The position numbers and the translations under genes were made by a program. A stretch of DNA of 62,255 nt from a bacterium (GTDB lineage Bacteria; Chloroflexota; Dormibacteria; Aeolococcales; Bog-877): contig JAKABB010000004.1 in NCBI GenBank assembly GCA_021802045.1, positions 1 through 62,255 of the forward strand, given 5' to 3'. The notes beneath the pieces were generated by a model. That model was not told where the DNA came from and did not search any database. It saw only the letters and a list, made by a program, of their open reading frames with translations. Of the stretch, positions 16,415 through 43,757 are shown piece after piece. Positions within the stretch are counted from its first letter, which is position 1, and the number at the start of each line of letters is the position of its first letter.

Positions 16415-16824
16415 CAGGCGTACAGGGCGTCGTACACGAAGCTTCCGCGCGCGAGCAGCTGGTAGTCGTCGGCCTCGGCGTCGAGCCCGCCCTCCCCGAT
16501 GGCGCGGAGACCCGCGCCCAAGGGATCTGCATCGACGTCCTCGACGATGTCTGCGGCATGGACCACTTGGGCAAGCCGGACCAGGGCGTGATCGCTGCCA
16601 AGGTCGAAGGAGTCGATCAACACTTCGAAGGAGCACTTGCCATCCCGGCGGGTGAACTCGGTGCCTGGAGCGTCGAAGGAGTGCGCCCCCTCAGCCTCGG
16701 CCCGCTGGAGGACCTCGGTCGGTGGGACGTAGAGGATCTCGGCGTCGGGGTCGATGAAGCGGCGGATGAGCCAGGGGCAGGCAATTCGGTCGGTCTTCGG
16801 CCGCGCGCGTGTGACCCACTTCAT
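16390..16824 (-). CDS. ChrB C-terminal-domain (chromate-resistance-like) protein, copy 1
   Basis: Begins MKWVTRARPKTDRIACPWLIRRFIDPDAEILYV, as ChrB-C-domain proteins typically do. 144 aa, 124/144 identical to copy 2. Confidence 0.75.
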   Translation of the reverse strand: MKWVTRARPKTDRIACPWLIRRFIDPDAEILYVPPTEVLQRAEAEGAHSFDAPGTEFTRRDGKCSFEVLIDSFDLGSDHALVRLAQVVHAADIVEDVDADPLGAGLRAIGEGGLDAEADDYQLLARGSFVYDALYAWCLRRVTD

Positions 16825-21506: not shown

Positions 21507-21916
21507 CAGGCGTACAGGGCGTCGTACACGAAGCTTCCCCGAGCCAGCAGCTCATGGTCGTCGGCCTCGGCGTCGAGTCCGCCCTCGCCGATGGCGCGGA
21601 GGCCGGCGCCCAGGGGATCTGCATCGACATCCTCGGCGATGTCGGCGGCGTGCACGACCTGGGCGAGTCGCACCAGGGCGCGATCACCTCCCAGGTCGAA
21701 GGCCTCGATCAGCACTTCGAAGGTGCAGCGGCCGTCCCGGTGGGTGAACTCGGCCCCAGGCGCATCGAAGGAGTGGGCCCCCTCGGCCTGGGCCCGCGGG
21801 AGGACATCACTCGGGTTGACGTAGAGGATCTCGGCATCGGGATCGATGAAGCGCCGGATCATCCAGGGGCAGGCAATCCGGTCGGTCTTCGGTCGGGCTC
21901 GGGTTATCCACTTCAT
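21482..21916 (-). CDS. ChrB C-terminal-domain (chromate-resistance-like) protein, copy 2
   Basis: MKWITRARPKTDRIACPWMIRRFIDPDAEILYV.... 144 aa, using the internal ATG of ORF 21482..22021. Confidence 0.75.
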   Translation of the reverse strand: MKWITRARPKTDRIACPWMIRRFIDPDAEILYVNPSDVLPRAQAEGAHSFDAPGAEFTHRDGRCTFEVLIEAFDLGGDRALVRLAQVVHAADIAEDVDADPLGAGLRAIGEGGLDAEADDHELLARGSFVYDALYAWCLRQVKD

Positions 21917-21985
21917 GGGCACTCTCTCTGTGAGACTGGACGGTCCGGCGGTGGGGCCGGAGGGGACTGATCCGAGGCGGGCAAG
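21482..21985 (-). repeat. duplicated segment, copy 2 (partner 16390..16890)
   Basis: See copy 1. Confidence 0.7.
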
Positions 21986-22232
21986 GCTCGCCGCCGCCGG
22001 CTGACTGCGAGCGCATCCCACCGGTGAGGCACCAGACGAGCGTACGCCGCGTCAGTTATGGCGGGGTTATCGAGCAGGGGCGGGCCATCGGTGCACGACG
22101 CTGCGGCGCCACCCCGGGTGCGCACCGGCGCTCGGCCGCTCTAGGGGCGACACCGTGGCGACCGCGCCTGCAGATGGGCCGCGAGCGCCCGCGGCGCAGG
22201 GGATGCGGAGACCGCGGTGGCCGGGGGCGCCA

Positions 22233-24065
22233 CTACCCTCCCGCCACCGCCCGCGGGCGCGCACCCCTCTTGACGCCAGTGTGCTCGGTGCTCAATGCGC
22301 TGACCAGCGCCGGGACCACCACCCGCCAGTCGCCGACAATGCCAACGTCCGCGGCGGCGAACACGGGCGCGCCGGCCGCGCTGTTGATCGCGAGGATCGT
22401 GTTGGCGGACCTCACTCCGATCATGTGGTTGAGCTTCCCCGAGAGTCCGATGGCCACGTAGAGTCGCGGTGCGATGTGCCGCCCCGTGACGCCAATCTGG
22501 CGGGAGCGGGGCAGCCAGCCGCGATCGGTGACTTTCCGCGTGGCGGCCAGGGGCGCGTCCCCGAGGGCGCGCTGGAGCGGTGCTAGGCCTGCGTAGGCGT
22601 CCGGTGGCACCCCCATGCCGACACCGATGACCACCGCCGCGCCGGTCAAGGTGTCCGGGTCGTCCTGAGGGTGCAGTTCGCACATCAGGACGCGCCTCCG
22701 GACGCACGCCGTCAGGGTCGTGGTGGGGGGCGCGACCGTGGCGGGTCGCTCAGCAGGGAGTGGCAGCGTCCCCGGACGCACCGTGACCAGCTGCACCGGT
22801 GAGTCCGTGGTGATCGCCGCGACCAGCTGACCGGCGGCCGCAGGCTTCCAGGCGACCAGGCGTCTCCCGTCCACGGCCAGCTCGATGGCGTCGCCGGTCA
22901 GTCCATACCCGAGGCGCGCGGCCAGCCGTCCGGCCATCTCCCGCCCCCAGGGAGTGCTGGGCGCCAGCAGCGCCCACGGCCCCACCCGCGCGGTCCAGTC
23001 GCCGATGGCCTCGATCAACTCCTCGGGCACGACGCTGCCCGCGACCGCGACCACGGCATCAGCGCCCCAGCGCCCCATCTGCACCATCGTCAGCTCGCCC
23101 TCGTGGCTCGCCGACCTCGAGGGCACGAGGGCCACGCAGTGGCCCCCCAGCTGGGCCCCGAGGGCACTGCCGCTCCCCAGCAGCTCCCGCGCCAGCCGGG
23201 GCCGGCCGGGCTCCACGAGCACCGCCACCACCGGCCCGCTGGGCTGGCGCGCGGCGGGGCTGCCGGGACTCCCTTCACCCTGCCGCGCGCCGGGGTCGAG
23301 GGCTCCCAGCCGCCGCAGCGTACGGACCGCGGCGGACACACCGGCGCGGTCCCCGCGAAGGAGGCGCAGGGCGCGTGCCGCGCGAAGCTCCTGAACCCCT
23401 ATCACCCGGGTGGGGCTTCCCGCCTGCCCCCAGGGGCCGGCGCCCAGAGCCGCCGAACCCAGCTGACGAATGCGCCCTGGTGCCACTGTCAGCCGAGCTG
23501 AGGCATCGGCCTTGGCGGGGGCGCAGAGCCGTTCGGCCGCCGAGACCAGCGCGGGCAGGCGGAGGCGGACCACGGCCAGCCCGTCGTCGCGCTCTGCCGT
23601 CACCACCAGGGCGTCCCCGTCCAACTCCATCTGCCGGGCGGCCGGAAGGAAGGGCAGGTCGAGTAGCTCAGCCAACTCCGGACCGACCTGGCCGGTGTCG
23701 GAATCCACCGAGCTCTTGCCGGTGAGGACCAGGTCGAACGCCCCGTCCCGCCGGATCGCCGCAGCCAGGGCCCGCGCCGTCGCCAGGGTGTCGGAGCCCG
23801 CAAATGCCGCCCCGGTGACGAGCACCGCGTCGTCGGCGCCGCAGGCGATCGCCTCGCGCAGCACCTCCGCGGCGGCGGGCGGTCCCAGGGTGTACACCAC
23901 GCACCGGCCGCCGCTGTCGCGTGCCAGCGCGATGCCTCCGGCCAGGGCGCGCCGACAGTACGGATTCATCTCCTGGGTCACGTCGGTGCGCTCCAGGCGG
24001 CCGTCCGGCCCCAGCCGGAGCTCGTCGATCGCCGGGACCTGCTTCACCAGCACGGCTATCCGCAC
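22233..24065 (-). CDS. fused electron-transfer flavoprotein, beta-subunit domain followed by alpha-subunit domain
   Basis: One 610-aa ORF. The N-terminal 250 aa is EtfB/FixA-like (VLVKQVP, NPYCRRAL, GSDTLATARALA, SSVDSDTGQVGPELAELL). The C-terminal 320 aa is EtfA/FixB-like (LAATRKVTDRGWLPRSRQIGVTGRHIAPRLYVAIGLSGKLNHMIG, ILAINSAAGAPVF). GTG start, with AAGGAGAG 6 nt upstream. Confidence 0.85.
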   Translation of the reverse strand: MRIAVLVKQVPAIDELRLGPDGRLERTDVTQEMNPYCRRALAGGIALARDSGGRCVVYTLGPPAAAEVLREAIACGADDAVLVTGAAFAGSDTLATARALAAAIRRDGAFDLVLTGKSSVDSDTGQVGPELAELLDLPFLPAARQMELDGDALVVTAERDDGLAVVRLRLPALVSAAERLCAPAKADASARLTVAPGRIRQLGSAALGAGPWGQAGSPTRVIGVQELRAARALRLLRGDRAGVSAAVRTLRRLGALDPGARQGEGSPGSPAARQPSGPVVAVLVEPGRPRLARELLGSGSALGAQLGGHCVALVPSRSASHEGELTMVQMGRWGADAVVAVAGSVVPEELIEAIGDWTARVGPWALLAPSTPWGREMAGRLAARLGYGLTGDAIELAVDGRRLVAWKPAAAGQLVAAITTDSPVQLVTVRPGTLPLPAERPATVAPPTTTLTACVRRRVLMCELHPQDDPDTLTGAAVVIGVGMGVPPDAYAGLAPLQRALGDAPLAATRKVTDRGWLPRSRQIGVTGRHIAPRLYVAIGLSGKLNHMIGVRSANTILAINSAAGAPVFAAADVGIVGDWRVVVPALVSALSTEHTGVKRGARPRAVAGG

Positions 24066-30186: not shown

Positions 30187-31422
30187 TCAGACGGGCCCCG
30201 GTCGGGGGTCCGGGGGCGAGGGGCTCGGCACGACCGGCTCCCCCCCGCGCCAGACCCGCCGCGGGCGCAGTCCCAGGGCCCAGGCGAAGGCCCCTTCGTG
30301 GTCGGCGTCCCACAGGACGAGGTCGCCGAGCTGCCCCGGTGCCACCGTCCCCCGGTCGGGCAGGCGCAGGGACTGCGCGCCCCCGGCGGTGGCCGCCCGG
30401 AGGGCCTCCGTCACCGACAGCCCCAGGTCGAGGACGGCCAGCCCCACGACCAGGCTCATGCTGGTGATGCCTGAGGTCCCCGGGTTGTGGTCGGTGGCCA
30501 GGGCCAGGGTGACGCCGGCCGCCTGCAGGAGTCGGGCCGGGGGGCGCTGGTGCATCGCCAGGGCGGTGACCGGGGCCAGGGTGGCGACCACGCCGGCCGC
30601 CGCGAGGCGGTGCGCGTCCTCCGCCGTGACCCGGAGCAGGTGATCGGCGGAGTCGGCGCCGAGCTCCGCGGCCAGCTCGGCGCCCCCCGTCCGCTCCAGC
30701 TCGTCGGCGTGGATCCGCAGGCGCAGCCCGGCCGCGCGCCCCGCGCGCAGGATGCGCCGGCTCTCCGCCACCGTGAAGGCGCCGGCGTCGCAGAAGACGT
30801 CGCAGGCCCGGGCCCCGGCGGCGGCCGCGGCCGGGGCCCAGTCGGCGACGGCCTGGACGTAGGCCGAGCGCCCGCCGGGCCAGTCGGCGGGGACGCCGTG
30901 AGCCCCGAGGTAGGTGGCCACCACCCGGGGCAGGCCTGGCGCGCCGTCCAGGGCGCGCAGGCAGTCCAGGGCCCAGAGCTCACCCTGACGCTCCAGGTGA
31001 TATCCCGTCTTGGCCTCCACCGTGGTGGTGCCCTCGCGCAGCCACCGGCCTAGCCGCGCCGCCACCAGGGTCGCCAGCGTCGCCGGCGCCTCGGCGCGGG
31101 TGGCGGCCACGGTGGCGGCGATGCCGCCGCCCGCCGCCGCCAGCTCGGCGTAGGAGGCCCCAGCGGTCCGCCGGGCGATCTCTGCCAGGCGGGCGCCTGC
31201 GTAGACCGGGTGGGTGTGGGCGTCGATCAGCCCGGCGGTGAGCAGCGCCCCGTCGCAGTCCTCCTCCAGCACCGGCCGGCCGCGCGGCGCCGCCGGCGGC
31301 CGGGCGCCGTCCGGCCCCACCCAGGCGATGCGGCCGTCGTCACCCACGGCCACGGCGGCGTGCTCGATGACGCCAGCCCCGGTGCCGGTGAAGCAGCGGC
31401 CGACGCCGCGCAGCACCCTCAT
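30187..31422 (-). CDS. hutI: imidazolonepropionase
   Basis: GLIDAHTHPVYAG, IHADEL and the TDHNPG amidohydrolase motifs. ATGA overlap with hutF. Confidence 0.85.
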   Translation of the reverse strand: MRVLRGVGRCFTGTGAGVIEHAAVAVGDDGRIAWVGPDGARPPAAPRGRPVLEEDCDGALLTAGLIDAHTHPVYAGARLAEIARRTAGASYAELAAAGGGIAATVAATRAEAPATLATLVAARLGRWLREGTTTVEAKTGYHLERQGELWALDCLRALDGAPGLPRVVATYLGAHGVPADWPGGRSAYVQAVADWAPAAAAAGARACDVFCDAGAFTVAESRRILRAGRAAGLRLRIHADELERTGGAELAAELGADSADHLLRVTAEDAHRLAAAGVVATLAPVTALAMHQRPPARLLQAAGVTLALATDHNPGTSGITSMSLVVGLAVLDLGLSVTEALRAATAGGAQSLRLPDRGTVAPGQLGDLVLWDADHEGAFAWALGLRPRRVWRGGEPVVPSPSPPDPRPGPV

Positions 31423-32756
31423 CCGCTCTCCCGGAGGGGGGACAGGGCCGCGGCCAGGGACGGTCCCACCGGTCCCAGGGCCAGGTGCTGGCCGTCCACC
31501 ACCACCGGCTCGCCCCCGACCACCACCGTGCGGACGTCGGCGGCGGTGGCGGCGAAGACCGCGTGGGCGGCGGCGTCGGACGGGCGCAGCCCGGCCAGGC
31601 GGGGCGAGTCGAGGTCCACCGTGATGAAGTCCGCCAGCCGGCCGGGCTCCAAGCGGCCCGCGTCCCAGCCCAAGGCCCGCATGCCGCCCGCGGTTGCGGC
31701 CTCCAGCAGTCGCTCGGGGGGGTGGAGCCCGCGACGCTCCGTGGCCAGCCGCTCGTCGAGCTCGACGGCGCGGGCCTCCTCGAAGAGGTCGATGACAGCG
31801 TGACTGTCGCTGCCCAGGCAGAGCGGGCTGCCAGCCCGCCAGAGGGCCCGGGCGCCGCCGATCCCGTCACCGAGCTCCCGCTCGGTGGTGGGGCAGAGGC
31901 AGATCGCGGTCCGGGTCCCCCCCAGCAGGGCCCGATCCTCCTCGGTCAGGTGGGTCGCGTGCACGGCCGTCGTGCCTGGGCCCAGCACGCCTGCCTCGGC
32001 CGCCAGCTGCGCGGGGGTGTGGCCGGTCGCGCGGAGGCACTGCTCGTTCTCCTGCCGCTGCTCCGACAGGTGCAGGTGCAGCGGCGCCCGCCGGGCCGCC
32101 GCCCAGCCGGCGACGGCCGCCATGCCGGCGGGGTCGACCGCCCGCACGCTGTGGATCGCGGCCCCGACGCGAACGCGGTCCGAGCCGCGCAGGGTGCCCG
32201 CTCGCGCGCTCCAGCGCTCCACCGAGCCGTCGCTGAAGCGCAGCATCGGCTCAGCCAGGGGGGCGGGCTCGAACCCGGCCCGCAGGTAGCAGGTGTCGAG
32301 CAGGGTGAGGCGGAGGCCGGCCGCCTCCGCGGCGGCGGTGAGGGCCTCGCCCATGGCGTTGGGCCGGTCGTACGGTCGTCCCCCGGCGCCGTGGTGCAGG
32401 TAGTGGAACTCGCCGACCGCCGTGACCCCCGCCAGCACCATCTCCTGATAGGTGGCTCGGGCCAGCAGGAAGTAGCGGTCGGGGTCGAGCTGACCCGCGA
32501 CGGCGTACATCCGGTCCCGCCAGCTCCAGAAGTCGCCGGCCTCGGACTCGGTGGCGCCGCGCAGGGCACGGTGGAAGGCGTGGGAGTGGGCGTTGGCCAG
32601 GCCGGGCAGGGTGAGCCCGGGCAGGGGGCGACCGGGGGTGCCCGGCGAAACCCCCGGCGTCACGCGGGCGATCCGGCCGTCCTCGACCTCGATGAGCACC
32701 CGCTCCGCGGCCCGCCCGATCCAGGCGAGCTCCGCCAGCCACCGCGACCCGGCCAC
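31419..32756 (-). CDS. hutF: formimidoylglutamate deiminase
   Basis: LPGLANAHSHAFHRALRG, HLHLSEQ, CLCPTTERELGDG. Position between hutU and hutI. Confidence 0.8.
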   Translation of the reverse strand: MAGSRWLAELAWIGRAAERVLIEVEDGRIARVTPGVSPGTPGRPLPGLTLPGLANAHSHAFHRALRGATESEAGDFWSWRDRMYAVAGQLDPDRYFLLARATYQEMVLAGVTAVGEFHYLHHGAGGRPYDRPNAMGEALTAAAEAAGLRLTLLDTCYLRAGFEPAPLAEPMLRFSDGSVERWSARAGTLRGSDRVRVGAAIHSVRAVDPAGMAAVAGWAAARRAPLHLHLSEQRQENEQCLRATGHTPAQLAAEAGVLGPGTTAVHATHLTEEDRALLGGTRTAICLCPTTERELGDGIGGARALWRAGSPLCLGSDSHAVIDLFEEARAVELDERLATERRGLHPPERLLEAATAGGMRALGWDAGRLEPGRLADFITVDLDSPRLAGLRPSDAAAHAVFAATAADVRTVVVGGEPVVVDGQHLALGPVGPSLAAALSPLRESG

Positions 32757-32766
32757 CCGGGAGCCC

Positions 32767-34452
32767 TCAGCCCTCAGGCAGCATGGGCAGGGTGAGCTGC
32801 TTGGCCCGGGCCACCGTCCGCGCCCCTTCGTAGCCGGCGTCGGCGTGCCGCATCACCCCGCTGCCGGGGTCATTGGTGAGCACCCGCTCCAGCTTGCGGT
32901 CGGCCAAGGGGGTGCCGTCGGCGACCACGACCACCCCGGCGTGGATCGAGCGGCCGATCCCCACCCCGCCGCCGTGGTGGACGCTGACCCAGGTGGCGCC
33001 GCTGGCGGTGTTTAGCAGGGCGTTGAGGATCGGCCAGTCGGCGATGGCGTCGCTGCCGTCGGCCATGGCCTCCGTCTCCCGATAGGGGGACGCCACCGAG
33101 CCGGTGTCGAGGTGGTCCCGGCCGATCACGATCGGGGCCCGGAGCTCGCCGCTGCGGACCATGGCGTTGAAGCGGAGCCCGAGCCGATCTCGCTCGCCCA
33201 GCCCCAGCCAGCAGATGCGTGCCGGCAGGCCCTGGAAGGCCACCCGCTCGGACGCCATCGCGATCCACCGGTGCAGCGCCGGGTTGTCCGGGAAGGTCTC
33301 GAGGACGGCCTGGTCGGTGGCGGCGATGTCGGCGGGGTCCCCGCTCAGCGCCGCCCAGCGGAAGGGGCCGCGCCCCTCGCAGAAGAGAGGCCGGATGTAG
33401 GCGGGGACGAAGCCGGGATAGGCGAAGGCGTTGGCCAGGCCTCCGACGCGGGCTTCGGTGCGCAGGCTGTTGCCGTAGTCGAAGACCTCGGCGCCGCGGT
33501 CCTGGAGGGCGATGAGGGCGGCCACGTGGCGCACCATGCTGGCCCGGGCCTGCCGCACGTACTCCGCCGGGTCCTCCAGGCGCAGGTCGGTCGCCTCGTC
33601 CAGCGTCAGCCCGGTGGGCAGGTACATGAGCGCGTCGTGGGCCGGGGTCTGGTCGGTGGCGACATCGACCGGGAACCCCTCGGCGACCAGCTGGGGCAGG
33701 ACCTCGGCCGCGTTGCCGAGGACGCCGATGGAGAGGGGGCGGCGCTCCGCCCGCGCCTCCAGAGCCAGCTGGCGAGCGGTGGCCAGGTCGGGCGCCACCA
33801 CGTCCAGGTAGCGGTGGGCCAGGCGGCGTTCGATGCGCTGCGGATCGATCTCCACGCACAGGGCGACCCCGCCGTTCATGGTCACGGCCAGCGGCTGCGC
33901 CCCCCCCATCCCGCCGAGCCCGGCGGTCACGGTGATCGTCCCCGCCAGCGAGCCGCCGAAGCGCTTGGCGGCGACGGCGGCGAACGTCTCGTAGGTGCCC
34001 TGGAGGATGCCCTGGGTACCGATGTAGATCCAGGAGCCGGCCGTCATCTGGCCGTACATCGTCAGCCCCAGGTCCTCCAGGCGGCGGAACTCCTCGGCCG
34101 TGGCCCAGTCCGGGACCAGGAGGGCGTTGGCGATCAGCACCCGGGGCGCCCACTCGTGGGTGCGGAAGACCCCCACCGGCTTGCCGGACTGGACCAGGAG
34201 GGTCTCGTCGTCGCCCAGGCGCCGCAGGCTGGCCACGATGGCGTCGAACGCCTCCCACGAGCGGGCCGCCCGCCCGCTCCCCCCGTAGACCACCAGGTCG
34301 TCGGGCCGCTCGGCGACCTCGGGGTCCAGGTTGTTCATCAGCATCCGCAGCGCCGCCTCCTGGGGCCAGGCCCGACAGCTGAGCTCCGGCCCCCGGGGGG
34401 CGCGCACCGGACGGGGGCCGCTACGGGGTGTGTGGGCGGGAGGGATGGGCAC
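32767..34452 (-). CDS. hutU: urocanate hydratase
   Basis: 561 aa. [23 protein letters not shown] and HHGGGVGIG, all characteristic of urocanase. Confidence 0.9.
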
Positions 34453-34932
34453 GGGCGGTTCCTCTGGCGGTGGCGACGATGCACATGGTGGCGGGTGGAG
34501 GAGCGGCGCGGCATGCGCGGACGCGATCAGCAGCCGCCAGCCTGGCGGGGCGGGGGGGGGCGGCCCGGGCCTGATCGGGCAGCGGCGAGGGCGGGGAGCC
34601 CAGCCGATGCAGGCTCATCCCACTCCCCCTCTCCGCCTGGAGGCCGAGCCCAAGCCTCTCCGAGGGCGGTGGCTCACCACGCCAGAGGCGCAGCGGCCTG
34701 ACCGCTTGACACCCGGGGGCTGCGGCCATAATCTCGACTGCATAAATCCAATCATATCCATTGAGGCATGTATGTCTGCCACAGGCGACAGAGCGTGACA
34801 CCGGACGCGGGCGGGCGGGCGACCGATGTCCGCTCATCGCCGGTCTCGGCGGTGTCCGGCCGGCTTCGGTCCGGGGCGCCCGCCAGAGCGGAAGCCGGCC
34901 GGGCGCCGGACCCCGGCGCAGCGGCGGCCGAG

Positions 34933-35754
34933 ATGGTCCGTCTCTTCAGCCTTCACCGCCTGACCCCGGCGCAGCGACGGATCGCCCAGTGCCTGATCGA
35001 TCAAGGGGCGGGCGCGGCCTTTCTCTCCAGCACCGAGGTGGCCGGGTTGGCGGGGGTCAGCCAACCTTCGATCACCCGCTTTGCGGTGGCCCTTGGCTTC
35101 ACCGGATACCCCGCCTTGCGTCGGCAACTGCGCGCGGGCGACGTCGACCCGACACGGTCCGGTGCCGCCAGGCCGCGCCTGAGCGTGCTCCAGGATGCCA
35201 TTGGCGCGGAGATCACCAATCTTCGGGTGCTCCAGACGCAGATGGCCGATGACACCGGCGTCCGCGCGGCCGCCGAGGCGCTGATGGCCTCGCGCCCGGT
35301 CGTGGTCCTGGGTCTGCGCGCGGCCTGCGGCTTGGCGCTCTATTTCACCTACTTCGCGGCCAAGATCCATCCGGACGTTCGGCTCATCACCGAAGGCGGC
35401 AGCCGCGTCGAGGATCGACTGGAGCAGGCCCGGCACGCCGGTGGGACCTGCGCCCTGTCCTTCGTGCTGCCGCGGTACGCGCGTGACGCTGTCACCGCCC
35501 TGGCAGCGGCGCGAGCGCTGGGGTTCCAGACCATCACCGTTTGCGACCGGGAGCTAAGCCCGGTCACCACGCTCAGCGACCTGCTGCTGGTGGCCGCCGT
35601 GGGCACCCGGCTGGTCTTCGACTCGCAGGTTGCACCGATGACCCTCTCCGCCATCCTGCTGCAGGCGATGTGCGACTCGAGCCCGAAGCAGACGCAGGCC
35701 CGCTTGGAGAGCTTCGAGACCGCAGCCACGGCCCGTCGGCTCTTCGCCAGCTGA
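34933..35754 (+). CDS. MurR/RpiR-family transcriptional regulator (HTH plus SIS domain)
   Basis: LTPAQRRIAQCLIDQGAGAAFLSSTEVAGLAGVSQPSITRFAVALGFTGYPALRRQL, followed by an SIS-like domain. ATG 34933 inside ORF 34768..35754. Confidence 0.8.
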   Translation: MVRLFSLHRLTPAQRRIAQCLIDQGAGAAFLSSTEVAGLAGVSQPSITRFAVALGFTGYPALRRQLRAGDVDPTRSGAARPRLSVLQDAIGAEITNLRVLQTQMADDTGVRAAAEALMASRPVVVLGLRAACGLALYFTYFAAKIHPDVRLITEGGSRVEDRLEQARHAGGTCALSFVLPRYARDAVTALAAARALGFQTITVCDRELSPVTTLSDLLLVAAVGTRLVFDSQVAPMTLSAILLQAMCDSSPKQTQARLESFETAATARRLFAS

Positions 35755-35924
35755 GTGATGGACCGCGACCGATCCCATCTGAGACCCATTAAGTCCGAGG
35801 GCATGCTCCGTGCCGGCGGCGGCCACTGCCCTCCGACGACCACCGTACCGGGGCGGCGTCCCCGGAAGCCCGGCGCAGTGATCGCCGCCAGCAGCGCCAA
35901 CGCAGTGTAGACGGAGGAGCTTTC

Positions 35925-37760
35925 ATGCGCACCCTATGGCAGAGACGGCAGCGACTCGGCTCCCGTCGCCTCCCGATGCTGGCGGTCGCCGTGGTGATGC
36001 TCCTCCTGAGCGCGTGCAGCAGCGCGCCGACCGCCGCCCAACGACCCATTCGCGGAGGCACCGCCACCGTGGCTCTGCTCCCGCACATCACCCCCACCTA
36101 CATCTTCCCCCTTTTCCCGCCAGCCGACTACGTGCTGTCGGAGATCGGAGGCTTCACCTGGCTCCAATGGCGACCCCTGTACTGGTTCGGCAACCAGGGC
36201 AAGCCTCTCTTTAATCCCCAGCTGAGCCTGGCCTATCCGCCCGTCTTCTCCAATGGCGGCAGGACGGTGACCATCACCCTCAAGCCCTACCGGTGGTCGA
36301 ACGGGGCACCGGTGACCAGCCGCGACGTCCAGTTCTGGCTCAACTTGCTCATCGCCAACAAGAGCTCCTGGGCCGGGTACGTTCCCGGAGCATTCCCCGA
36401 CAACCTGGTGAGTGAGCGGTACATGTCCGCCACCAAGTTCAGCCTCACCTTCAACGCCGCCTACAATCAACACTGGCTCCTGTACAACGAGCTGGGACAG
36501 ATCACGCCGATCCCGCAGCGGGCGTGGGACAAGACGTCCAGTGGCGGCACGGTGGGAAACTACGATCTCTCCCACAGCGGAGCGGTCGCGGTGTACCACT
36601 TCCTCAACAAGGAGTCACTGTCCCTGGCCACGTGGGCGACCGACCCCTTGTGGCAGGTGGTGGATGGCCCCTGGAAGATCTCCAGTTACTCCCCAGCGAC
36701 AGGCCAGACGGCGCTGGTCGTCAACCAGCGCTACAGCGGGGTACGGCGGGGCCGGCTGACCAAGATCGAGTTCATCCCCTTCCAGAGCGAGGCCTCGGAG
36801 TTCGACGCCCTGCGCTCGGGACAGATCGACTACGGCTACCTGCCGGTGGCGGACCTGTCGCAGCAAGGCTACCTGGCAAGCCACGGGTTCAGCGTGCATC
36901 CTTGGATCCAGTTCGCCATGGGCTACATGCCCTTCAACTTCACCAATCCCACCGTGGGGCCGATGATCCACCAGCTCTACGTGCGGCAGGCGATGCAGCA
37001 CCTGATCAACGAGACGCAGTACATCCGCGATATCTACCATGGTCGCGCCTACCCCACCTATGGACCGGTTCCGGAACAGCCGGCCAGCCCGTACCTCAGC
37101 CCGCAGGCCCACCATGACCCCTATCCCTTCAGCGTGGCCGCCGCACAACAGCTCCTCAGCGCCAACGGGTGGCGGGTCCGTCCTGGACAGACCAGCACCT
37201 GCCAGCATCCTGGCACCGGCAGCCACGAGTGCGGCGCGGGCATTGCGGCCGGGACCGCGCTGAATTTCACCCTGCAGTACGCCTCGGGATCCAGCAGCCT
37301 GACGGCGGCGATGGAGACCCTGAAGTCCGACTTTTCGCAAGCGGGCATCCAGATCCAGTTGCAGAGCGAGCCGTACGCCTCACTGCTGGGGAATTTCACC
37401 TGCGACCGGGCCACCGGCAGCGGGTGCAAGTGGCAGATCGAGAACGAGGGCCTGGGCTGGAGCTACGGCCCGTACGATCCGTACCCTACGGGCGGCGAGA
37501 TCTTCGCCGGTGGGGCACCGTCAAACGTCGGCGGGTACAACAACCCGACCAACAACGCCAACATCGCTGCGTCCCACCTGGCCAACGGGCTGGGATCTCT
37601 TTATCGCTATGAGAACTTCGTGTCCCAGCAGCTGCCGGCACTCTGGGTGCCGATGCCCTACCGGCAAGTGTCGGTGATCCGCGACACCCTTCACGGGGCG
37701 CTGCCACAAGACCCCTACCTCAACCTGAATCCGGAGAACTGGTACTTCACCCACGCCTGA
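35925..37760 (+). CDS. ABC transporter substrate-binding lipoprotein, family 5 (peptide/nickel type), orphan
   Basis: Lipobox LLLSAC, 611 aa. The overall pattern is that of DppA/OppA-like binding proteins. No cognate permease or ATPase genes are adjacent. Confidence 0.75.
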   Translation: MRTLWQRRQRLGSRRLPMLAVAVVMLLLSACSSAPTAAQRPIRGGTATVALLPHITPTYIFPLFPPADYVLSEIGGFTWLQWRPLYWFGNQGKPLFNPQLSLAYPPVFSNGGRTVTITLKPYRWSNGAPVTSRDVQFWLNLLIANKSSWAGYVPGAFPDNLVSERYMSATKFSLTFNAAYNQHWLLYNELGQITPIPQRAWDKTSSGGTVGNYDLSHSGAVAVYHFLNKESLSLATWATDPLWQVVDGPWKISSYSPATGQTALVVNQRYSGVRRGRLTKIEFIPFQSEASEFDALRSGQIDYGYLPVADLSQQGYLASHGFSVHPWIQFAMGYMPFNFTNPTVGPMIHQLYVRQAMQHLINETQYIRDIYHGRAYPTYGPVPEQPASPYLSPQAHHDPYPFSVAAAQQLLSANGWRVRPGQTSTCQHPGTGSHECGAGIAAGTALNFTLQYASGSSSLTAAMETLKSDFSQAGIQIQLQSEPYASLLGNFTCDRATGSGCKWQIENEGLGWSYGPYDPYPTGGEIFAGGAPSNVGGYNNPTNNANIAASHLANGLGSLYRYENFVSQQLPALWVPMPYRQVSVIRDTLHGALPQDPYLNLNPENWYFTHA

Positions 37761-37780
37761 TCCGGACCGTGTCCCTGGTC

Positions 37781-37814
37781 GCCCGTGGCGGCGCCGTGTG
37801 GCGCCGCCACGGGC
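37781..37814. terminator. perfect 15-bp stem hairpin after the family-5 binding-protein gene
   Basis: GCCCGTGGCGGCGCC-gtgt-GGCGCCGCCACGGGC, 21 nt after the stop. Confidence 0.65.
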
Positions 37815-38152
37815 CAGGGCTGGTGACGGCCCTCGATCGTCCCGCCCCCGGCCCGGGGGTCCCCGCGGGGATCCGTCCTGGCTGGGCGAGGTGGCCTGCC
37901 GTGGCGCTGGCGACGGGACGGTCTCGGCTGGCGTCGAGCGGACGAGGAGGAGTGGGGCCGCCGCCGCCACGCGGCGCGGCTCGTCGACGGGCATGCCGCT
38001 GAGAGAGACGAGTCCTCCCGGGGGCTCGCCAACCCGGGCGCGGGCGCCGGGGGTTCGGCCAGGGGTGAGCATCGTCGCGGGCAGGCCTCGGTCTCAGGCG
38101 CTTCCCTCCTTCTCCACCGGAGGAGTTGGTGCCTGGCCTTCGGCCGCAACGG

Positions 38153-39619
38153 TCAGGAGATGCGAGCCGAAGCCTCGTCTGCCACCGCCACCAGTCGACC
38201 AGAGTGGATTAGGTCCACCAGCGGTTCAAGGTCGGCAGGCACGACCTGGCCGCGACCCTGCAGCCGGACCACCGAGCGCGCGAGAGCGTGCGCTGCCCGA
38301 GTACCGCTGCCGAGCCGGGCCAGTCCGCGACGGTCAACGGCCTGGGCCGCCACCACCAACGCGATCGCGAGAACCCGCTCACCGAGGTTGACCATTTCCT
38401 GGAGTCGCCGGGCCGCCAGCGGCGCCATCGTGACGCGATCCTCGATGCCCGCCGCATGGGTAGAGGTGGTCAGTTCGAACGATACGGGCTGGGCGAGGAG
38501 CCGGGCCTCGGCGGTGAGAGCCTGGGCGGTGAGCCCGAACTCGGCCAAACCGTCCTCGGCCAGACCCTCGGCGCTCGCCAGCCCCGCGGGGAGCCCTGTC
38601 AGCCAACCCTGGAGAAGCTTCTCCAGTCGCTCGGCTGCGCTGGTGAGCACCGGGGCCAGAGCGATGCGGCTGAAATCCAGAGCCTGGGCCAACGGGATGA
38701 TGTCGAAGTTGCCGACGGAGCGCACCGTCCGGCTGGCAGTGACCACCAGCGGGTTGCCCTGGGCCGCGTTGAGCTCGATGGCCAGCTGACGGTTGGCGAA
38801 GCGCAGGCCGTCACGGGCTGCCCCGTGGACTTGGGGCAAGCAGCGGAATGTCAGCGGATCCTGGAGGTTGCGGGCCGCTCCTGGCGCCCAGAGGCCGCTG
38901 GCGCGGAGGAGAGCCTGCAGGTGCAGCAGCGTCTCCTGGAGGCCAGGGTATGGTCGTGCGCGGGCCACCGCCGGGTCGAGGGCGGAGAGGTTGGCGCCAA
39001 ACGCCTCGAGGTCGAGGGCACCCGCTACGTCGGCGCTCTCCAGCAGGCGATCGGCATCGTCCAGAGCCAGGGCGGCCGACGCGGTGGCGTAGGCATTGTT
39101 GTCGATGAGGGCCAGGCCCTCGCCTGCGGCCGGCCGGAGGTCGGCCGTCGCCAGCGCGCCGGCGGCGAGGTCGGCGAGCGGTGCGAGGTCGGCCTGGCCC
39201 ACCGACCCTCGACTGCGCACCGTCGGGAGCGGGCCGTTGTTCAGCACGCTGGCCAAGTGCTGGGCCAGCTCAGGTCGGACCCCGGCGTTGCCGCTGGCCA
39301 GGAGGTTGATCAGGCAGACGAGCGTACCCCGCACAATCTCGTCCGTCGCTGGCGGGCCCTGGCCGACGCGGTGATTGGCGATCAAGAGGGAATTGAACGC
39401 CTCTACCGTGCCGGGCTCGACGTGGATGCGCTTGCGCTCGCCGACGCCGGTCGTGAAGCCGTAGACGGTGGCCCCGGCCGCGAGGGTTTCCTCCACCACA
39501 TCGCGGCCGTCGCGCATGCGTTCCACCGCGGACGGGGTCAGCGTGACCGGCTCGCCGGCCCGGGCCACTCGCACCACGTCATCGCGGGTCAGGTGGTTCC
39601 CGTCAAGGAGCACTGTCAC
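38153..39619 (-). CDS. aromatic amino acid ammonia-lyase (HAL/PAL) family paralog lacking the MIO-forming tripeptide
   Basis: 488 aa, colinear with HutH throughout. At the MIO position it reads GSVGQADLAPLAD instead of GS(V/L)G(A/C)SGDLAPLAH. Other family motifs are also altered (see finding). Confidence 0.8.
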   Translation of the reverse strand: MTVLLDGNHLTRDDVVRVARAGEPVTLTPSAVERMRDGRDVVEETLAAGATVYGFTTGVGERKRIHVEPGTVEAFNSLLIANHRVGQGPPATDEIVRGTLVCLINLLASGNAGVRPELAQHLASVLNNGPLPTVRSRGSVGQADLAPLADLAAGALATADLRPAAGEGLALIDNNAYATASAALALDDADRLLESADVAGALDLEAFGANLSALDPAVARARPYPGLQETLLHLQALLRASGLWAPGAARNLQDPLTFRCLPQVHGAARDGLRFANRQLAIELNAAQGNPLVVTASRTVRSVGNFDIIPLAQALDFSRIALAPVLTSAAERLEKLLQGWLTGLPAGLASAEGLAEDGLAEFGLTAQALTAEARLLAQPVSFELTTSTHAAGIEDRVTMAPLAARRLQEMVNLGERVLAIALVVAAQAVDRRGLARLGSGTRAAHALARSVVRLQGRGQVVPADLEPLVDLIHSGRLVAVADEASARIS

Positions 39620-40393
39620 CGCGCCTCTCGTCCCCCTGCGTGCCGGGCCCGCACGGCCGCCGCGGTGTCCCCCCTTGTCGCCGCCAGCCCGACCATCTCA
39701 GCCAGCCACTCCAGACGCACCGGGGTGAACCATCTGTCGCAGGTGGTGCCGCCCCGACTCCCGCGTGACGTGGCGACCGGGGTCGCCCGGCGACAGGTCC
39801 ATCGGCACCGCCCGGCGGGGCCCCTCGAGCGCCCCGACCGAGACGGTGGCTGCGTGACCGCCCCTACCAGCGGACGTCGTGGCGCCGATGCCTTGACGCG
39901 CGGGAGTTGGGAGCGCACACCCGGCTGCACACGTCCAAGCATAAGTCAGGGAGCATGACGGAGAGTTGCGCGGGGAACCGGGCGGGAGCCGAGTCCGCTA
40001 CGGGCGGCGGCACGGCACGCCGACGGATGGCCGATCCATGGTGGGACTGGACGCGCGGTCCGGGTCCGGCGGTGAGAGCCATCAGCCGTCCGCGCCCCCA
40101 AGGTCCGCCGAGCGCTGCCGAGCGACATGCCGAGAGCAACCAGTGCTGCCGCCCGGCTGGGTTCATCGACGGCCGCACCGTGCCGCGGTGCTTCACCCCG
40201 GACCTGAGGAGATCGCCAGCCTGCGGGCGGCCGGCGTAGCCTGACCGGTCCCAGCCGGTGGATCCCCGCCTCCGCCCATTACGCCGATTGGGGGGTGTCC
40301 ATTCCCGTGCCGTGGTGGGGTGGCCGCCGACTCCGCTACGAGTTCGCCTGACCCACCTCAGACTGGGGCCAATTCACTTTGTGACAACCGGCG

Positions 40394-41962
40394 TTAGGCG
40401 AGCGGGCCCGCGTGCGCCTCAGCCGCCTCCAGCGCCAGGCCCGTCACCACCAGCCGCTCCACTGCGGCCAGCTCCGGGGCCACCGCCCGGTCCGGGCCGG
40501 CGGACCCGGCCGCCGCCCGCACCCGTGCCGCCGCCGCCGCCGTCGCCGGCGCCGGCGCCAACGGCTCCCGGAACTCCAGGGCGCGCGTGGCGCTGAGGAG
40601 CTCGATGGCCAGGATGCGGCCGAGGTTGGTAACCACCTCCTGCAGCTTGCGGGCCGCGGCCCAGCCCATCGACACGTGGTCCTCCTGCATCCCTGAGGTG
40701 GGGATGGAGTCGACGCTGGCCGGCTGAGCCAGGCGCCGGTTCTCTGCTACCAGGGCGGCCGCTGTGTACTGGGCGATCATCAGTCCCGAGTTGACCCCCG
40801 CGTCGACGGCGAGGAAGGGCGGCAGGCCATGGGAGCGGGCTGGGTCCAGGAGGCGGTCGACGCGGCGCTCGGCGATGGCGCCGACCTCGCAGAGGGCGAT
40901 GGCGCAGAAGTCGGCGGCGAAGGCCAGCGGCTCTCCGTGGAAGTTGCCGGTGGACTCCACCGCGCCGCTCTCCAGCACCACCGGGTTGTCCACCGCGGCC
41001 GCCAGCTCCCGGGCCGCCACTTCCACGGCGAAGGCGATGGTGTCGCGGGCGGCGCCGGCCACCTGTGGGGAGCAGCGGACCGAGTAGGAGTCCTGGACCA
41101 GGTGGTCCGAGTCGCGGTGGGAGGCCAGGATCGGGGAGCCGTCGAGGAGCCGGACCAGGTTGGCGGCGCTGCGGGCCTGGCCCGGGTGGGGGCGGATCGC
41201 CTGCAGCTCGGCCGCGAAGGGGCGGTCGGTCCCGAGGAGGGCCTCGCAGCTCATGGCGGCGGTGAGGTCCGCCGTGCGCAGGAGCCGGTCGGCGTCGTGG
41301 AGGGCCAGGATTAGCATCCCCAGCATGCCGTCCGTCCCGTTGATGAGCGCCAGCCCTTCCTTGACCTCCAGCCGCAGCGGCTCCAGTCCGGCGGCGCGGA
41401 GGGCCGGCCCGGCGGGGGTCGGCCCTCCCTGCGGGTCCAGGACCCAGCCCTCCCCGAGCAGGGCCAGCGACATGTGGGCCAGCGGGGCCAGGTCGCCGCT
41501 GCAGCCGAGCGAGCCGTGGGTCGGGACCACCGGTGTGAGCCCGGCGTTGAGGCAGGCCACCAGCAGCTCGGCCACGGCCGGCCGGGTCCCGGAGAGGCCC
41601 ATGGCCAGGCTGCGCACCCGCAGGAGCATCATCGCCCGGACCACCTCCCGGGGCATGGCCGGCCCCATGCCGGCGGCGTGGGAGCGGATCAGGGCGTGCT
41701 GGAGGGCGGGCTGCTGCTCCACCGGGATCCGGGTCGCCGCCAGGGCGCCGAAGCCGGTGGAGATGCCGTAGACGGGGCGGGTGTCGGCGGCCGCGGCCAG
41801 CACCCGCTCCCGGCTGCGAGCCATCGCGGCCCGTGCCGCCGGAGCGATCGCCACCGGGGCGCCGCCGCGGGCGACCCGGACGACCTCGGCCGGGGTCAGC
41901 CCGGGGCCGTGGACGACCACCGAGGCCGCCGCGTCGGCGTCGGCCGGTGGCTGCGGGATCAC
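40394..41962 (-). CDS. hutH: histidine ammonia-lyase
   Basis: YGISTGFG, GSLGCSGDLAPLAH (Ser-Gly of the MIO retained), LALINGT, QDSYSVRC, GNFHGEP, QEDHVSMG. The GTG start at 41962 overlaps (GTGA) the stop of the MBL gene. Confidence 0.85.
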   Translation of the reverse strand: MIPQPPADADAAASVVVHGPGLTPAEVVRVARGGAPVAIAPAARAAMARSRERVLAAAADTRPVYGISTGFGALAATRIPVEQQPALQHALIRSHAAGMGPAMPREVVRAMMLLRVRSLAMGLSGTRPAVAELLVACLNAGLTPVVPTHGSLGCSGDLAPLAHMSLALLGEGWVLDPQGGPTPAGPALRAAGLEPLRLEVKEGLALINGTDGMLGMLILALHDADRLLRTADLTAAMSCEALLGTDRPFAAELQAIRPHPGQARSAANLVRLLDGSPILASHRDSDHLVQDSYSVRCSPQVAGAARDTIAFAVEVAARELAAAVDNPVVLESGAVESTGNFHGEPLAFAADFCAIALCEVGAIAERRVDRLLDPARSHGLPPFLAVDAGVNSGLMIAQYTAAALVAENRRLAQPASVDSIPTSGMQEDHVSMGWAAARKLQEVVTNLGRILAIELLSATRALEFREPLAPAPATAAAAARVRAAAGSAGPDRAVAPELAAVERLVVTGLALEAAEAHAGPLA

Positions 41963-42588
41963 CGGCCGCGCGCCACCCACTCCGCCAGGTGGGGCGCCTC
42001 CGTCCCGATGGTGGTCGACGGCCCGTGACCGGTGTGCACCACCGTGCTCGGCGGGAGGGTCAGCAGCCGCTCGGTCAGGGATCGAATCAGGGTCGGGAAG
42101 TCCGAGTAGGAGCGACCGGTCGCCCCGGGGCCGCCCTGGAAGAGGGTGTCGCCGGTCAGGACCGTCGCCAGCTCGGGCAGGTGCAGGCAGACCCCGCCCG
42201 GGGTGTGCCCCGGCGTCAGGAGGACCTCGATGGTGGTCCCGGCCACCGCGATCCGATCGCCGTCGCGCAGCCAGCGGTCGGGGCGGCGGGTGCCGTGGAC
42301 GGCGGCCCACAGGATGGCATCGTCCGAGTGGATGCAGATCGGGGCGTCGACCTGGGCCGCCAGCGGCTGGGCGGCGTTGATGTGGTCGTTGTGCCCGTGG
42401 GTGCACAGGATCGCCCGGACGCGGCGCTCGCCCACCGCCTCGACGATGGCGGTGGCGTCGTGGGCGGGGTCGACGACCACCACCTCGCGGTCGTCACCCA
42501 CCAACCACACGTTGTTGTCGACCGCGATGTCCTCGCCATCGAGCGAGAAGGTCCCGCTGGTGCGGACCTGGTCGATGCGGACCGTCAC
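41959..42588 (-). CDS. MBL-fold metallo-hydrolase (Rv2260-like partner of MscR)
   Basis: THGHNDH metal motif, 209 aa, GTGA overlap with the mscR stop. Confidence 0.85.
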
Positions 42589-43670
42589 AGCACTACGACC
42601 GACCGCAGCACCTCCCCCCGCTGCATCCGGGCGAAGGCGCGCTCGACGTCCTCCAGGCCGATGGTCTCGGAGACGAAGCCGTCCAGATCGAGCTTGCCCC
42701 GCCGGTAGAGGTCGATGAGGACCGGGAAGTCGCGCGACGGCAGGCAGTCGCCGTACCAGGAGGCCTTCAACTGGCCGCCCCGGCCGAACACCTCGGCCAG
42801 GGGCAGCTCGATGGTGGCCGCCGGGGTGGGCACGCCGACCAGGACCAGGGTCCCGGCGTGGTCACGGGCGAGGAAGGCCTGCCGGTAGGTCAGCGGCAGG
42901 CCCACGGCGTCCACCACCAGGTCGGCGCCCACCCCGTCGGTGAGGGCGCGCACCCCCTGCACCGGATCGGTGGTGGCGGCGTCGATGACGTCGGTCGCTC
43001 CGAAGCCCTGGGCCCACTCCAGCTTGCGCCGGTCGACGTCGACGGCGATGACCCGGCGGGCGCCCGCCAGCGCCGCGCCGGCGATGGCGGCCATGCCCAC
43101 CCCGCCGCAGCCGAAGACCGCGACGGTGTCCCCGGGGCCGGCGCGCCCGGTGTGGACCGCGGCGCCGTAGCCGGCCATGACCCCGCAGCCGATCAGGCCC
43201 GCTGCCTCGGGCCGGGCGGCGGGGTCGACCTTCACCGCCTGCCCGGCGGCCACCAGGGTCAGCTCGGCGAAGGCGCCGATGCCGAGGGCGGCGGTGAGGG
43301 GCGTCCCGTCGGCGAGCGTCATCCGCTGGTGGGCGTTGCGGCTGGCGAAGCAGTACCAGGGGCGGCCACGCCGGCAGGAGCGGCAGCTGCCGCAGGGATC
43401 GCGCCAGGCGATGACCACGAAGTCGCCGGGCCGCAGGGCGCCGCCGCCGTCCCCCACGGCCTCGACGGTCCCGGCCGCCTCATGCCCCAGGAGGAAGGGG
43501 AAGTCGCTGCCGATGGCGCCCTCGCGGTAGTGGAGGTCGGTGTGGCAGACCCCGCACGCCCGCACCCGGACCAGGACCTCGCCCGGCCCCGGGTCGGGCA
43601 CCCGGATCGCCTCCACCGAGACCGGGGCGCCGGGACCCCGCGCCACCACGCCCCGCACCTCATGTCCCAT
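42585..43670 (-). CDS. mscR: S-(hydroxymethyl)mycothiol dehydrogenase (class III Zn-ADH)
   Basis: 361 aa from MGHEVRGVV. Near-colinear with my memory of M. tuberculosis MscR ([57 protein letters not shown]). Confidence 0.85.
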
Positions 43671-43757
43671 GGGGCCCACCCTCCGGTCGCGATCGTCCAA
43701 CCCGGCGGCCAGGATTATAGGCGCCCGGCCGGGCCGTCCCCGGCCGGTCCGGTGGCC

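Follow-up and report, generated by a model that had tools for sequence, protein, structure and literature searches.

A predicted MIO-independent trimethylammonia-lyase for a histidine betaine in the hut cluster of a Dormibacteria contig

Proteins of the Pfam family PF00221 (Lyase_aromatic) that lack the Ala-Ser-Gly triad of the 4-methylideneimidazol-5-one (MIO) cofactor are trimethylammonia-lyases (bioRxiv 10.1101/2025.08.13.670108; 10.64898/2026.04.22.720169). All known MIO-deficient members require a trimethylammonium group: trimethylamine leaves easily, so that MIO is not needed, whereas ammonia is a poor leaving group without it. These enzymes keep the proton-abstracting tyrosine, the imidazole-binding histidine and glutamate as well as the carboxylate-binding glutamine, arginine and asparagine. 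In the ergothionase Td_ETL from Treponema denticola (Protein Data Bank entry: 6s7j) the thiolate of ergothioneine is bound by Lys384, which is essential for ergothionase activity. In lyases of sulfur-free betaines a neutral residue occupies this position (Asn in Swoo_3913 and Gln in SO_3299). Swoo_3913 from Shewanella woodyi is a hercynine-specific, Mg2+-dependent histidine betaine trimethylammonia-lyase (HBTL) (bioRxiv 10.1101/2025.08.13.670108). SO_3299 from Shewanella oneidensis is an N(pi)-methyl histidine betaine lyase that rejects hercynine, and SO_3057 is an ergothionase (bioRxiv 10.64898/2026.04.22.720169). Here, we describe a gene (38153-39619, minus strand) in a 62,255-nucleotide stretch of contig JAKABB010000004.1 from a Dormibacteria assembly (GCA_021802045.1), in the following called the window. 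The gene lies beside the histidine utilisation gene hutH, and its product, in the following called the lyase, has the fold of histidine ammonia-lyases (HAL) and no MIO triad.

We propose, with a probability of about 0.6, that the lyase works in the cytoplasm as a MIO-independent trimethylammonia-lyase and that its substrate is a histidine betaine, most likely hercynine, which it would convert to urocanate and trimethylamine. The assignment to the class of trimethylammonia-lyases is very probable. Taken separately, hercynine as the specific substrate is close to an even call.

A shortened loop in place of the MIO triad

The gene forms an intact open reading frame (ORF) of 488 codons with a GTG start, free of stops and frameshifts in the ORF call and its translation. 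The start is backed by the homologue consensus MTVVLxGxxLT. No signal peptide or leader was found at the N-terminus, and the alignment with cytoplasmic HALs begins at residue 1. The protein matches PF00221 over its full length (368.5 bits, profile positions 1-465 of 466) and scores under the HAL cut-offs of NCBIfam (327.3 vs. 524 bits for NF006871 and 313.7 vs. 539.15 bits for TIGR01225). It is colinear with the neighbouring HutH (40% identity across 467 residues). An earlier note, made from the letters of the DNA, had described an intact, full-length HutH paralog unable to form MIO. This description of the ORF holds, the minus strand having been unstated there, and all twelve motif strings listed in it were found as written in both proteins.

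At the MIO position HutH reads GSLGCSGDLAPLAH and the lyase GSVGQADLAPLAD. The segment of the lyase is one residue shorter and the Ser-Gly is absent (GSVG-QADL vs. GSLGCSGDL in HutH); nucleotides 39176-39208, where the earlier note had placed it, encode exactly the residues G138-L148. Four independent alignments gave the same register, and none of them showed a Ser-Gly of the lyase in register with the MIO triad, which bears out that the lyase cannot form MIO. Moreover, the HutH motifs TGFG, LALINGT, QDSYSVRC, GNFHGEP, and QEDHVSM correspond to TGVG, LALIDNN, QDPLTFRC, GNFDIIP, and IEDRVTM in the lyase, respectively, and an equivalent of HAL Tyr280 is missing. Where the lyase departs from HAL, the ergothionase 6s7j departs likewise (G-QAD/G-EGD, QDPLTFRC/QDPLSFRC, NFDIIPLA/NFEITSLA, and IEDR/IEDH in the lyase and in 6s7j, respectively). 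Among solved structures 6s7j was also the best full-length match, in a single HMMER stretch (3-477, E = 2.5e-49). The loop deletion has the same register in the ergothionase (SSIG-EGDIT) and in Swoo_3913 (GSVGLSDI). Since conservation of the alternative motifs exceeds 90% among the 120 closest homologues and the shortened loop is common to 70 representatives, the sequence of the lyase is not the outcome of chance degeneration.

The AlphaFold2 model of the lyase (pLDDT 87.9, pTM 0.91) superimposes on HAL and ergothionase structures with template-modelling (TM) scores of 0.85-0.89. Foldseek returned 6s7j as the best match in the Protein Data Bank (E = 3e-27, TM 0.88). The fold by itself does not split ergothionase from HAL (E = 3e-27 vs. 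3e-26) and was given little weight.

The 120 closest homologues (59-63% identity) stem mostly from metagenome-assembled genomes (MAGs) of Gaiellaceae and other Thermoleophilia and from soil metagenomes, and carry generic names only. Nothing closer than 63% identity was found in the reference genomes and metagenome contigs searched. A scan of 1.84 billion representative proteins yielded 8354 relatives, the best 150 of which were aligned with HutH, Td_ETL, and Swoo_3913 (sequence from the preprint supplement, bioRxiv 10.1101/2025.08.13.670108). This alignment contained a MIO-bearing HAL clan with the motifs GASGDLA, QDAYSLRC, GNFHGQP, QYTA, and QEDHV, and a large set without MIO, in which the loop is shortened and QDPLSFRC is found. 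In a distance-based neighbour-joining tree (106 full-length taxa, 472 columns, 100 bootstraps) all 70 shortened-loop sequences, including the lyase, Td_ETL, and Swoo_3913, formed one clade (100/100) with every MIO-bearing HAL outside. A clade of MIO-less members, which the earlier note had raised as a question for phylogeny, thus exists. Within it the lyase belongs to a subclade of 54 taxa (95/100) that contains neither Td_ETL nor Swoo_3913 and the core of which shares IEDR. Td_ETL and Swoo_3913 group with two relatives (88/100), and the lyase lies outside the LQKT/EDH group that holds Td_ETL. Composition-adjusted scores of the lyase were 200 bits with Td_ETL, 184 bits with the neighbouring HutH, and 118 bits with Swoo_3913. 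The lyase, which had been called a paralog, is therefore a member of an old MIO-less clade and no young or decayed copy of the neighbouring hutH.

The hand-defined HAL clan did not emerge as an exact split in the same tree (0/100); a few basal HAL-like sequences wander. In two sequences of this clan (P0205 and P0240) the triad is lost through a three-residue deletion (SVGY---L), an independent loss unlike the one-residue deletion described above. Fusion partners in the wider MIO-less clade are diverse: an N-terminal PAS-GGDEF-EAL module (P0143, P0149), a C-terminal GNAT domain (P0122), an arginase-family domain (P0206), and, on ergothionase-like proteins with LQKT, cNMP-binding domains (P0181, P0183, P0211). 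Some of these fusions may be gene-call artefacts. The diversity of the partners makes functional heterogeneity in the wider clade likely. At a further locus (L009, 9953-12937) an ORF of 994 residues combines a MIO-less lyase with about 500 residues that match no Pfam family.

The lyase is an outgroup to the set of 120 homologues (61% identity to its members vs. 73% among the members). Of the 184 columns with a conservation of 95% or more in this set it nevertheless retains 168, and its deviations at the other 16 are conservative or recurrent elsewhere; Asp173, for example, is also found in L013 and in several representatives, among them P0124-P0126 and P0129. This retention test stood in for dN/dS and is the weaker of the two. 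Together with the intact ORF it upholds the earlier view that the gene is retained under selection.

Predicted active site and reaction

Roles were assigned to residues of the lyase by homology, following the two preprints cited above, in an alignment of 38 sequences (A1). Tyr53, His83, Arg259, and Asn289 are invariant in A1, while conservation reaches 90% or more for Gln253 and Glu393. Tyr53 lies within the low-pLDDT mobile loop 56-61 region of the AlphaFold2 model. Leu363 was in register with the essential Lys384 of Td_ETL in all alignments made, and over the subclade this specificity position varies (L, V, I, N, H, W, and G). Finally, Arg395, standing in the place of a histidine, is the signature of the subclade (IEDR). 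In the model, residues 393-396 form a strand in which 393 and 395 appear to face the same way, which would direct Arg395 toward the pocket.

The following reaction is predicted. The substrate would be a histidine that bears a quaternary trimethylammonium on its alpha-amino position, a good leaving group for which the MIO electrophile would be unnecessary. Gln253, Arg259, and Asn289 would grip the carboxylate, His83 and Glu393 would grip the imidazole, and Tyr53 on its mobile loop would abstract the beta-proton. Trimethylamine would then depart by 1,2-elimination and leave a trans-enoate. With hercynine (N-alpha-trimethylhistidine) the products would be urocanate and trimethylamine, and the flanking HutU, HutI, and HutF would carry urocanate on to glutamate.

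The absence of MIO, the lack of a thiolate-binding lysine, and the intact imidazole and carboxylate binders agree with a sulfur-free product. The same conclusion is suggested by three lines of context, namely the embedding of the lyase in the hut cluster, a cupin fusion with a hutU-type urocanase nearby, and an operon with dioxygenase-like and Amidohydro_2 genes. Hercynine is regarded as the most likely substrate because Leu363 replaces the thiolate-binding lysine and because the sole downstream enzyme is an ordinary urocanase.

Compared with the described systems, the lyase shares with Td_ETL the MIO-less HAL fold, the shortened loop, the catalytic residues, the cytoplasmic location, and the clade. 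It differs in sequence (27% identity), in Leu363 for Lys384, in IEDR for IEDH, in its subclade, and in that no thiourocanate hydratase lies beside it. Swoo_3913 is likewise MIO-less, with a shortened loop (GSVGLSD), no lysine at the specificity position, and NNA and NFD motifs, and the conversion of hercynine to urocanate and trimethylamine would be common to both. However, the two proteins are only 25% identical, and Swoo_3913 carries Asn for Leu363 and IENF for IEDR, clusters with the ergothionases, and is a periplasmic enzyme coupled to a respiratory urocanate reductase, whereas the lyase has no leader. Neither a urocanate reductase nor a flavocytochrome c turned up among the scanned genes of the window. 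SO_3299 and SO_3057 can be likened to the lyase by description, not by sequence: both are MIO-less PF00221 proteins, and SO_3299 combines a neutral residue in place of Lys384 with a sulfur-free substrate, as is predicted for the lyase with its Leu363. Both are periplasmic and respiratory, in contrast to the lyase. With the neighbouring HutH and the HAL of P. putida (Protein Data Bank entry: 1b8f) the lyase shares fold, length, and the Tyr/His/Glu substrate-binding scaffold; it differs from HutH in the missing MIO triad and Tyr280 equivalent, in GNFDIIP for GNFHGEP, and in its position outside the HAL clan.

Gene context of the lyase and of its relatives

On the minus strand the gene order is FDH, Lactamase_B, hutH, a spacer of 774 bp, the lyase, and, further on, hutU, hutF, and hutI (34452-30187). 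The window hutU, the sole urocanase in the window, clears the urocanate hydratase cut-off (TIGR01228) but scores under the cut-offs of both the thiourocanate and the S-methyl-thiourocanate hydratase models (NF058530 and NF058531). Between the lyase and hutU lie two plus-strand genes for an RpiR-type regulator and an orphan SBP_bac_5 solute-binding protein (SBP5), with at most a putative functional tie to the lyase. The GC content at third codon positions (GC3) is 0.84 for the lyase and 0.86 for RpiR and SBP5, compared with 0.94-0.96 for hutH, hutU, hutF, hutI, and FDH. Two relatives of the locus, L017 and L018, share the backbone of the window (HIT, FolD, Mur ligase, phosphodiesterase, FDH, Lactamase_B, and hutH). 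The gene for the MIO-less lyase is not present in the syntenic relatives L017, L018, and L019, and in L018 and L019 hutU follows directly after hutH. Because of its lower GC3 and its absence from these relatives, the lyase is probably a lineage-specific, horizontal acquisition inside the hut cluster. The block of about 6 kb that comprises RpiR, SBP5, and the lyase (34768-39619) looks like an insertion that splits the hut operon. The window SBP5 is 51% identical to that of L017, below the 62-84% of the backbone genes. When co-arrival with the lyase was tested, it proved unrelated to the lyase-linked SBP5s of other loci, and RpiR matched nothing. The spacer (39620-40393) gave only chance-level matches to the MetE-like partner described below or to genes of the syntenic relatives, and no Rfam family, sigma-70 promoter or terminator consensus was found in it; it may be an insertion scar or an unrecognised regulatory element.

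Several observations were made on the neighbouring genes. The MIO triad of the window HutH is Cys-Ser-Gly (GSLGCSGDLA), whereas nearly all MIO-bearing representatives have Ala-Ser-Gly or Ser-Ser-Gly, and the nearest named relative of this HutH is encoded in a Candidatus Dormibacterota MAG (GCA_035531895.1, 93% identity). With 615 bits, the protein encoded at 42585-43700 exceeds the cut-off (513) of the NCBIfam equivalog for S-(hydroxymethyl)mycothiol dehydrogenase, although the closest named relatives of the window are Candidatus Dormibacterota MAGs and not Actinomycetota. In L017 (11726-13792) and L018 (13592-15541) a fused histidinol dehydrogenase/imidazoleglycerol-phosphate dehydratase of 649-688 residues, a biosynthetic protein, is found amid the histidine-utilisation genes.

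Partner genes of related lyases were mapped over 34 loci by local tblastn. In the group with 56-63% identity to the lyase, a MetE-like gene (PF01717) precedes the lyase, its stop overlapping the lyase start; a divergent ATP-grasp gene is found upstream, and the 3' side is occupied by GNAT and/or a BHMT-type homocysteine S-methyltransferase (HMT, PF02574), followed in L001, L005, L006, and L027 by an SBP5-type ABC transporter. Three loci with 56-60% identity (L014, L021, L022) combine MetE-like, lyase, and HMT genes with Amidohydro_2 (PF04909) and a cysteine-dioxygenase-like (CDO-like) cupin; in L007, of the same identity range, the CDO-like gene lies about 3 kb past HMT and was the only gene mapped beyond it. 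Such operons of the Gaiellales type often have the divergent ATP-grasp gene. At 44-46% identity, in ten loci mostly from Solirubrobacteraceae, the same CDO-like cupin is fused to the C-terminus of the lyase. In all seven of these loci with sufficient upstream sequence, the fused lyase adjoins a 3-hydroxyacyl-CoA-dehydrogenase-like gene and a urocanase. The one urocanase copy that was scanned (L010) scored 675 bits with TIGR01228 and passes the plain hutU cut-off only.

The cupin matched the Protein Data Bank entries 8qfl-8qfr, deposited as "Cysteine dioxygenase", with E-values of 1e-13 to 1e-15, compared with 3e-3 to 0.1 for canonical cysteine dioxygenases. An ergothioneine dioxygenase with a 3-His iron site exists, the sulfinate product of which desulfinates (preprint), and hercynine is a product of ergothioneine oxidation. 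The Amidohydro_2 partner shows distant similarity to IDCase and ACMSD. Amidohydro_2 is a family of metal-dependent non-oxidative decarboxylases, and a desulfinase role would suit this partner. NCBIfam holds no model for the CDO-like or the Amidohydro_2 partner.

Table 1. Positions of the lyase, its predicted active-site residues, neighbouring window genes and operons of related lyases.
Feature	Position	Strand	Remark
MIO-less HAL-fold lyase gene	38153..39619	-	488 aa; predicted trimethylammonia-lyase on histidine betaine
Loop G138-SVGQADLAP-L148, in place of the MIO-forming segment	39176..39208	-	HutH counterpart GSLGCSGDLAPL one residue longer
Tyr53, predicted beta-proton-abstracting base	39461..39463	-	corresponds to Swoo_3913 Tyr77; invariant in A1
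His83, predicted binder of imidazole nitrogen	39371..39373	-	invariant in A1
Q253-DPLTF-R259-C260; Gln and Arg predicted carboxylate binders	38840..38863	-	as ergothionase QDPLSFRC, not HAL QDSYSVRC
Asn289 (GNP), predicted carboxylate binder	38753..38755	-	invariant in A1
Leu363, at the ergothionase Lys384 position	38531..38533	-	Asn in Swoo_3913, Gln in SO_3299
Glu393-Asp-Arg395; Glu predicted imidazole binder	38435..38443	-	at least 90% conserved in A1
hutH, Cys-Ser-Gly MIO triad	40394..41962	-	TIGR01225 648.6 bits, NF006871 673.5 bits, both pass
Non-coding spacer, hutH stop to lyase start	39620..40393	.	774 bp; no convincing ORF
SBP_bac_5 solute-binding protein, orphan	35925-37760	+	Pfam; between lyase and hutU
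RpiR-type helix-turn-helix regulator	34768-35754	+	Pfam; between lyase and hutU
hutU (urocanate hydratase), predicted consumer of the lyase product	32767..34452	-	TIGR01228 912.8 bits
hutF	31419-32756	-	NF006681 617.8 bits
hutI	30187-31422	-	TIGR01224 340.5 bits
MetE-like/lyase/HMT/Amidohydro_2/CDO-like operon, Gaiellales-type contigs	L021 1-4208; L022 1-4773; L014 8877-15488; L007 3594-10682		
Lyase-cupin fusion	L010 9935-12097; also L011, L012, L029, L030, L032-L034, L037; P0160		

Alternative readings and implications

Several points weigh against hercynine lysis as the function. The 54-taxon subclade holds no characterised member, and the identities to Td_ETL and Swoo_3913 are as low as given above. 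Leu is the specificity residue, whereas the known lyases of sulfur-free betaines have Asn or Gln there. Judged from the model, the subclade residue Arg395 might hold a negatively charged group on the ring (thiolate, sulfinate or sulfonate), which would speak for a substrate with sulfur. The adjacency to hut genes is lineage-specific: L017, L018, and L019 do without the gene, which has a GC3 of 0.84 compared with about 0.95 for its neighbours, so that the argument from context draws on a single genome. The usual partners (MetE-like, HMT, CDO-like, and Amidohydro_2) were absent from the window by tblastn, and the constant MetE-like and homocysteine-methyltransferase partners of the closer relatives are not accounted for by a plain lyase function. 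The analysis shows the missing MIO, the clade membership, the residue conservation and the gene context, whereas catalysis, the substrate and the link to Hut are predictions. Finally, the oxidative route considered below takes the entry 8qfl as a probable ergothioneine dioxygenase and draws on a metal-dependent desulfinase that reportedly converts the sulfinate to N-alpha-trimethylhistidine.

The substrate could instead be a modified histidine betaine, such as ergothioneine sulfinate or sulfonate, S-methyl-ergothioneine, N(pi)-methyl histidine betaine or a selenium analogue, cleaved to a substituted urocanate that would be processed further, for example desulfinated by the Amidohydro_2 enzyme. 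The wide variation of the specificity position suggests several substrates in the subclade, and the cationic, subclade-specific Arg395 stands two positions past the imidazole-binding Glu on the same strand. The operons with CDO-like and Amidohydro_2 genes fit the order dioxygenase, lyase, desulfinase equally well. SO_3299, an enzyme of closely similar type, demands an unexpected methylated betaine and rejects hercynine, so that the substrate is not readable from the Lys384 position alone, and the S-methyl thiourocanate hydratase model of NCBIfam shows that such pathways exist. A literature search on the S-methyl-thiourocanate pathway found nothing relevant. We consider a modified betaine unlikely, since an enzyme that would take up a substituted urocanate is missing from the window, where hutU falls under both thiourocanate-type cut-offs, the hydrophobic Leu363 is no obvious binder of an anionic group, and the urocanase beside the fused lyases (L010 copy) is of the plain hutU type.

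A true ergothionase, which would convert ergothioneine to thiourocanate and trimethylamine, is less probable still. The ergothionase 6s7j is the best full-length match in sequence plus fold among solved structures, QDPLxFRC, NF(D/E)I, and IED are shared with it, and Arg395 could conceivably replace Lys384 as the thiolate binder. However, the essential Lys384 is Leu363 here, and its absence has twice predicted a non-ergothionase specificity correctly. Moreover, the lyase falls outside the LQKT/EDH group with Td_ETL, and no thiourocanate hydratase is found in the window.

Of the earlier suggestions, an enzyme with different chemistry was the right one. That the lyase has lost catalysis and was kept after the loss of MIO as a pseudoenzyme, or as a subunit that binds a ligand or regulates, for example by modulating HutH, is very improbable. 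MIO and the Tyr280 equivalent are both missing, the gene adjoins hutH, and 16 near-invariant positions deviate. Yet every residue needed for a MIO-independent elimination (Tyr, His, Gln, Arg, Asn, and Glu) is invariant or nearly so over the family, the clade includes two biochemically active members, and the deviations recur in other members or are conservative. Clade placement and GC3 difference speak against a derivation from the neighbouring hutH, and the syntenic relatives do without the lyase. Just as remote is a MIO-independent reaction on a non-betaine (an isomerase, an aminomutase or a lyase for another leaving group), for which the lack of a characterised subclade member and the recurrent MetE-like and homocysteine S-methyltransferase partners, not explained by a simple lyase, can be adduced, but which conflicts with the trimethylammonium requirement of all known MIO-deficient members, with the conserved imidazole and carboxylate binders indicating a histidine skeleton, and with ammonia being a poor leaving group without MIO.

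The lyase had been put forward as a candidate for an undescribed function; the enzyme class is in fact known from 6s7j, released in 2019, from the hercynine lyase Swoo_3913 of a 2025 preprint, and from SO_3057 and SO_3299. What is new is a distinct subclade with a signature of its own (IEDR and a specificity residue other than Lys, Asn or Gln), cytoplasmic and linked both to Hut and to ergothioneine-dioxygenase-like genes. Soil Actinomycetota and neighbouring groups carry it very commonly, hidden under wrong or generic annotation.

We tentatively suggest that the IEDR subclade supplies the missing last step of an O2-dependent ergothioneine catabolism in soil Actinomycetota, Thermoleophilia, and Dormibacterota. 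Ergothioneine would be oxidised to the sulfinate by the ergothioneine-dioxygenase-like cupin, the sulfinate converted to hercynine by the Amidohydro_2-type desulfinase, and hercynine cleaved by the lyase to trimethylamine and urocanate, which would enter Hut. The window organism would have captured the lyase only, which, as part of its hut cluster, would serve to scavenge hercynine. In a stronger form of this suggestion, Arg395, the variable specificity position, and the constant MetE-like and homocysteine-methyltransferase partners would be signs of a new substrate or of a coupled, so far undescribed methyl-salvage chemistry.

To our knowledge, the lyase reaction from hercynine to urocanate is so far known only from the periplasmic respiratory Shewanella enzyme. 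Should the proposed function of the lyase be true, hercynine, which is both a precursor and an oxidation product of ergothioneine, would be tied directly to histidine catabolism in aerobic soil bacteria. The cupin fusion and operon would then suggest a complete oxidative route from ergothioneine to glutamate, and soils would have an extra source of trimethylamine. Many thousands of genes of soil bacteria named "histidine ammonia-lyase" or "aromatic amino acid lyase" would have to be re-annotated; in the set of 106 full-length sequences, taken from the best 150 representatives of 8354 matches, about 70 are MIO-less. More generally, proteins that have lost a cofactor motif should be compared with cofactor-independent sister clades before they are named pseudoenzymes, for which the lyase is a clean example.

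Two further observations concern other parts of the window. Two ChrB_C genes flank a transposase fragment that comprises only the C-terminal part of Transposase_29 (16390-16824, 19551-20345, and 21482-22021), which suggests a mobile or rearranged chromate-resistance region. A single ORF of 610 residues (22233-24065) carries both an ETF (beta-type) and an ETF_alpha FAD-binding domain and represents either a fused electron-transfer flavoprotein or two genes merged in the ORF call.

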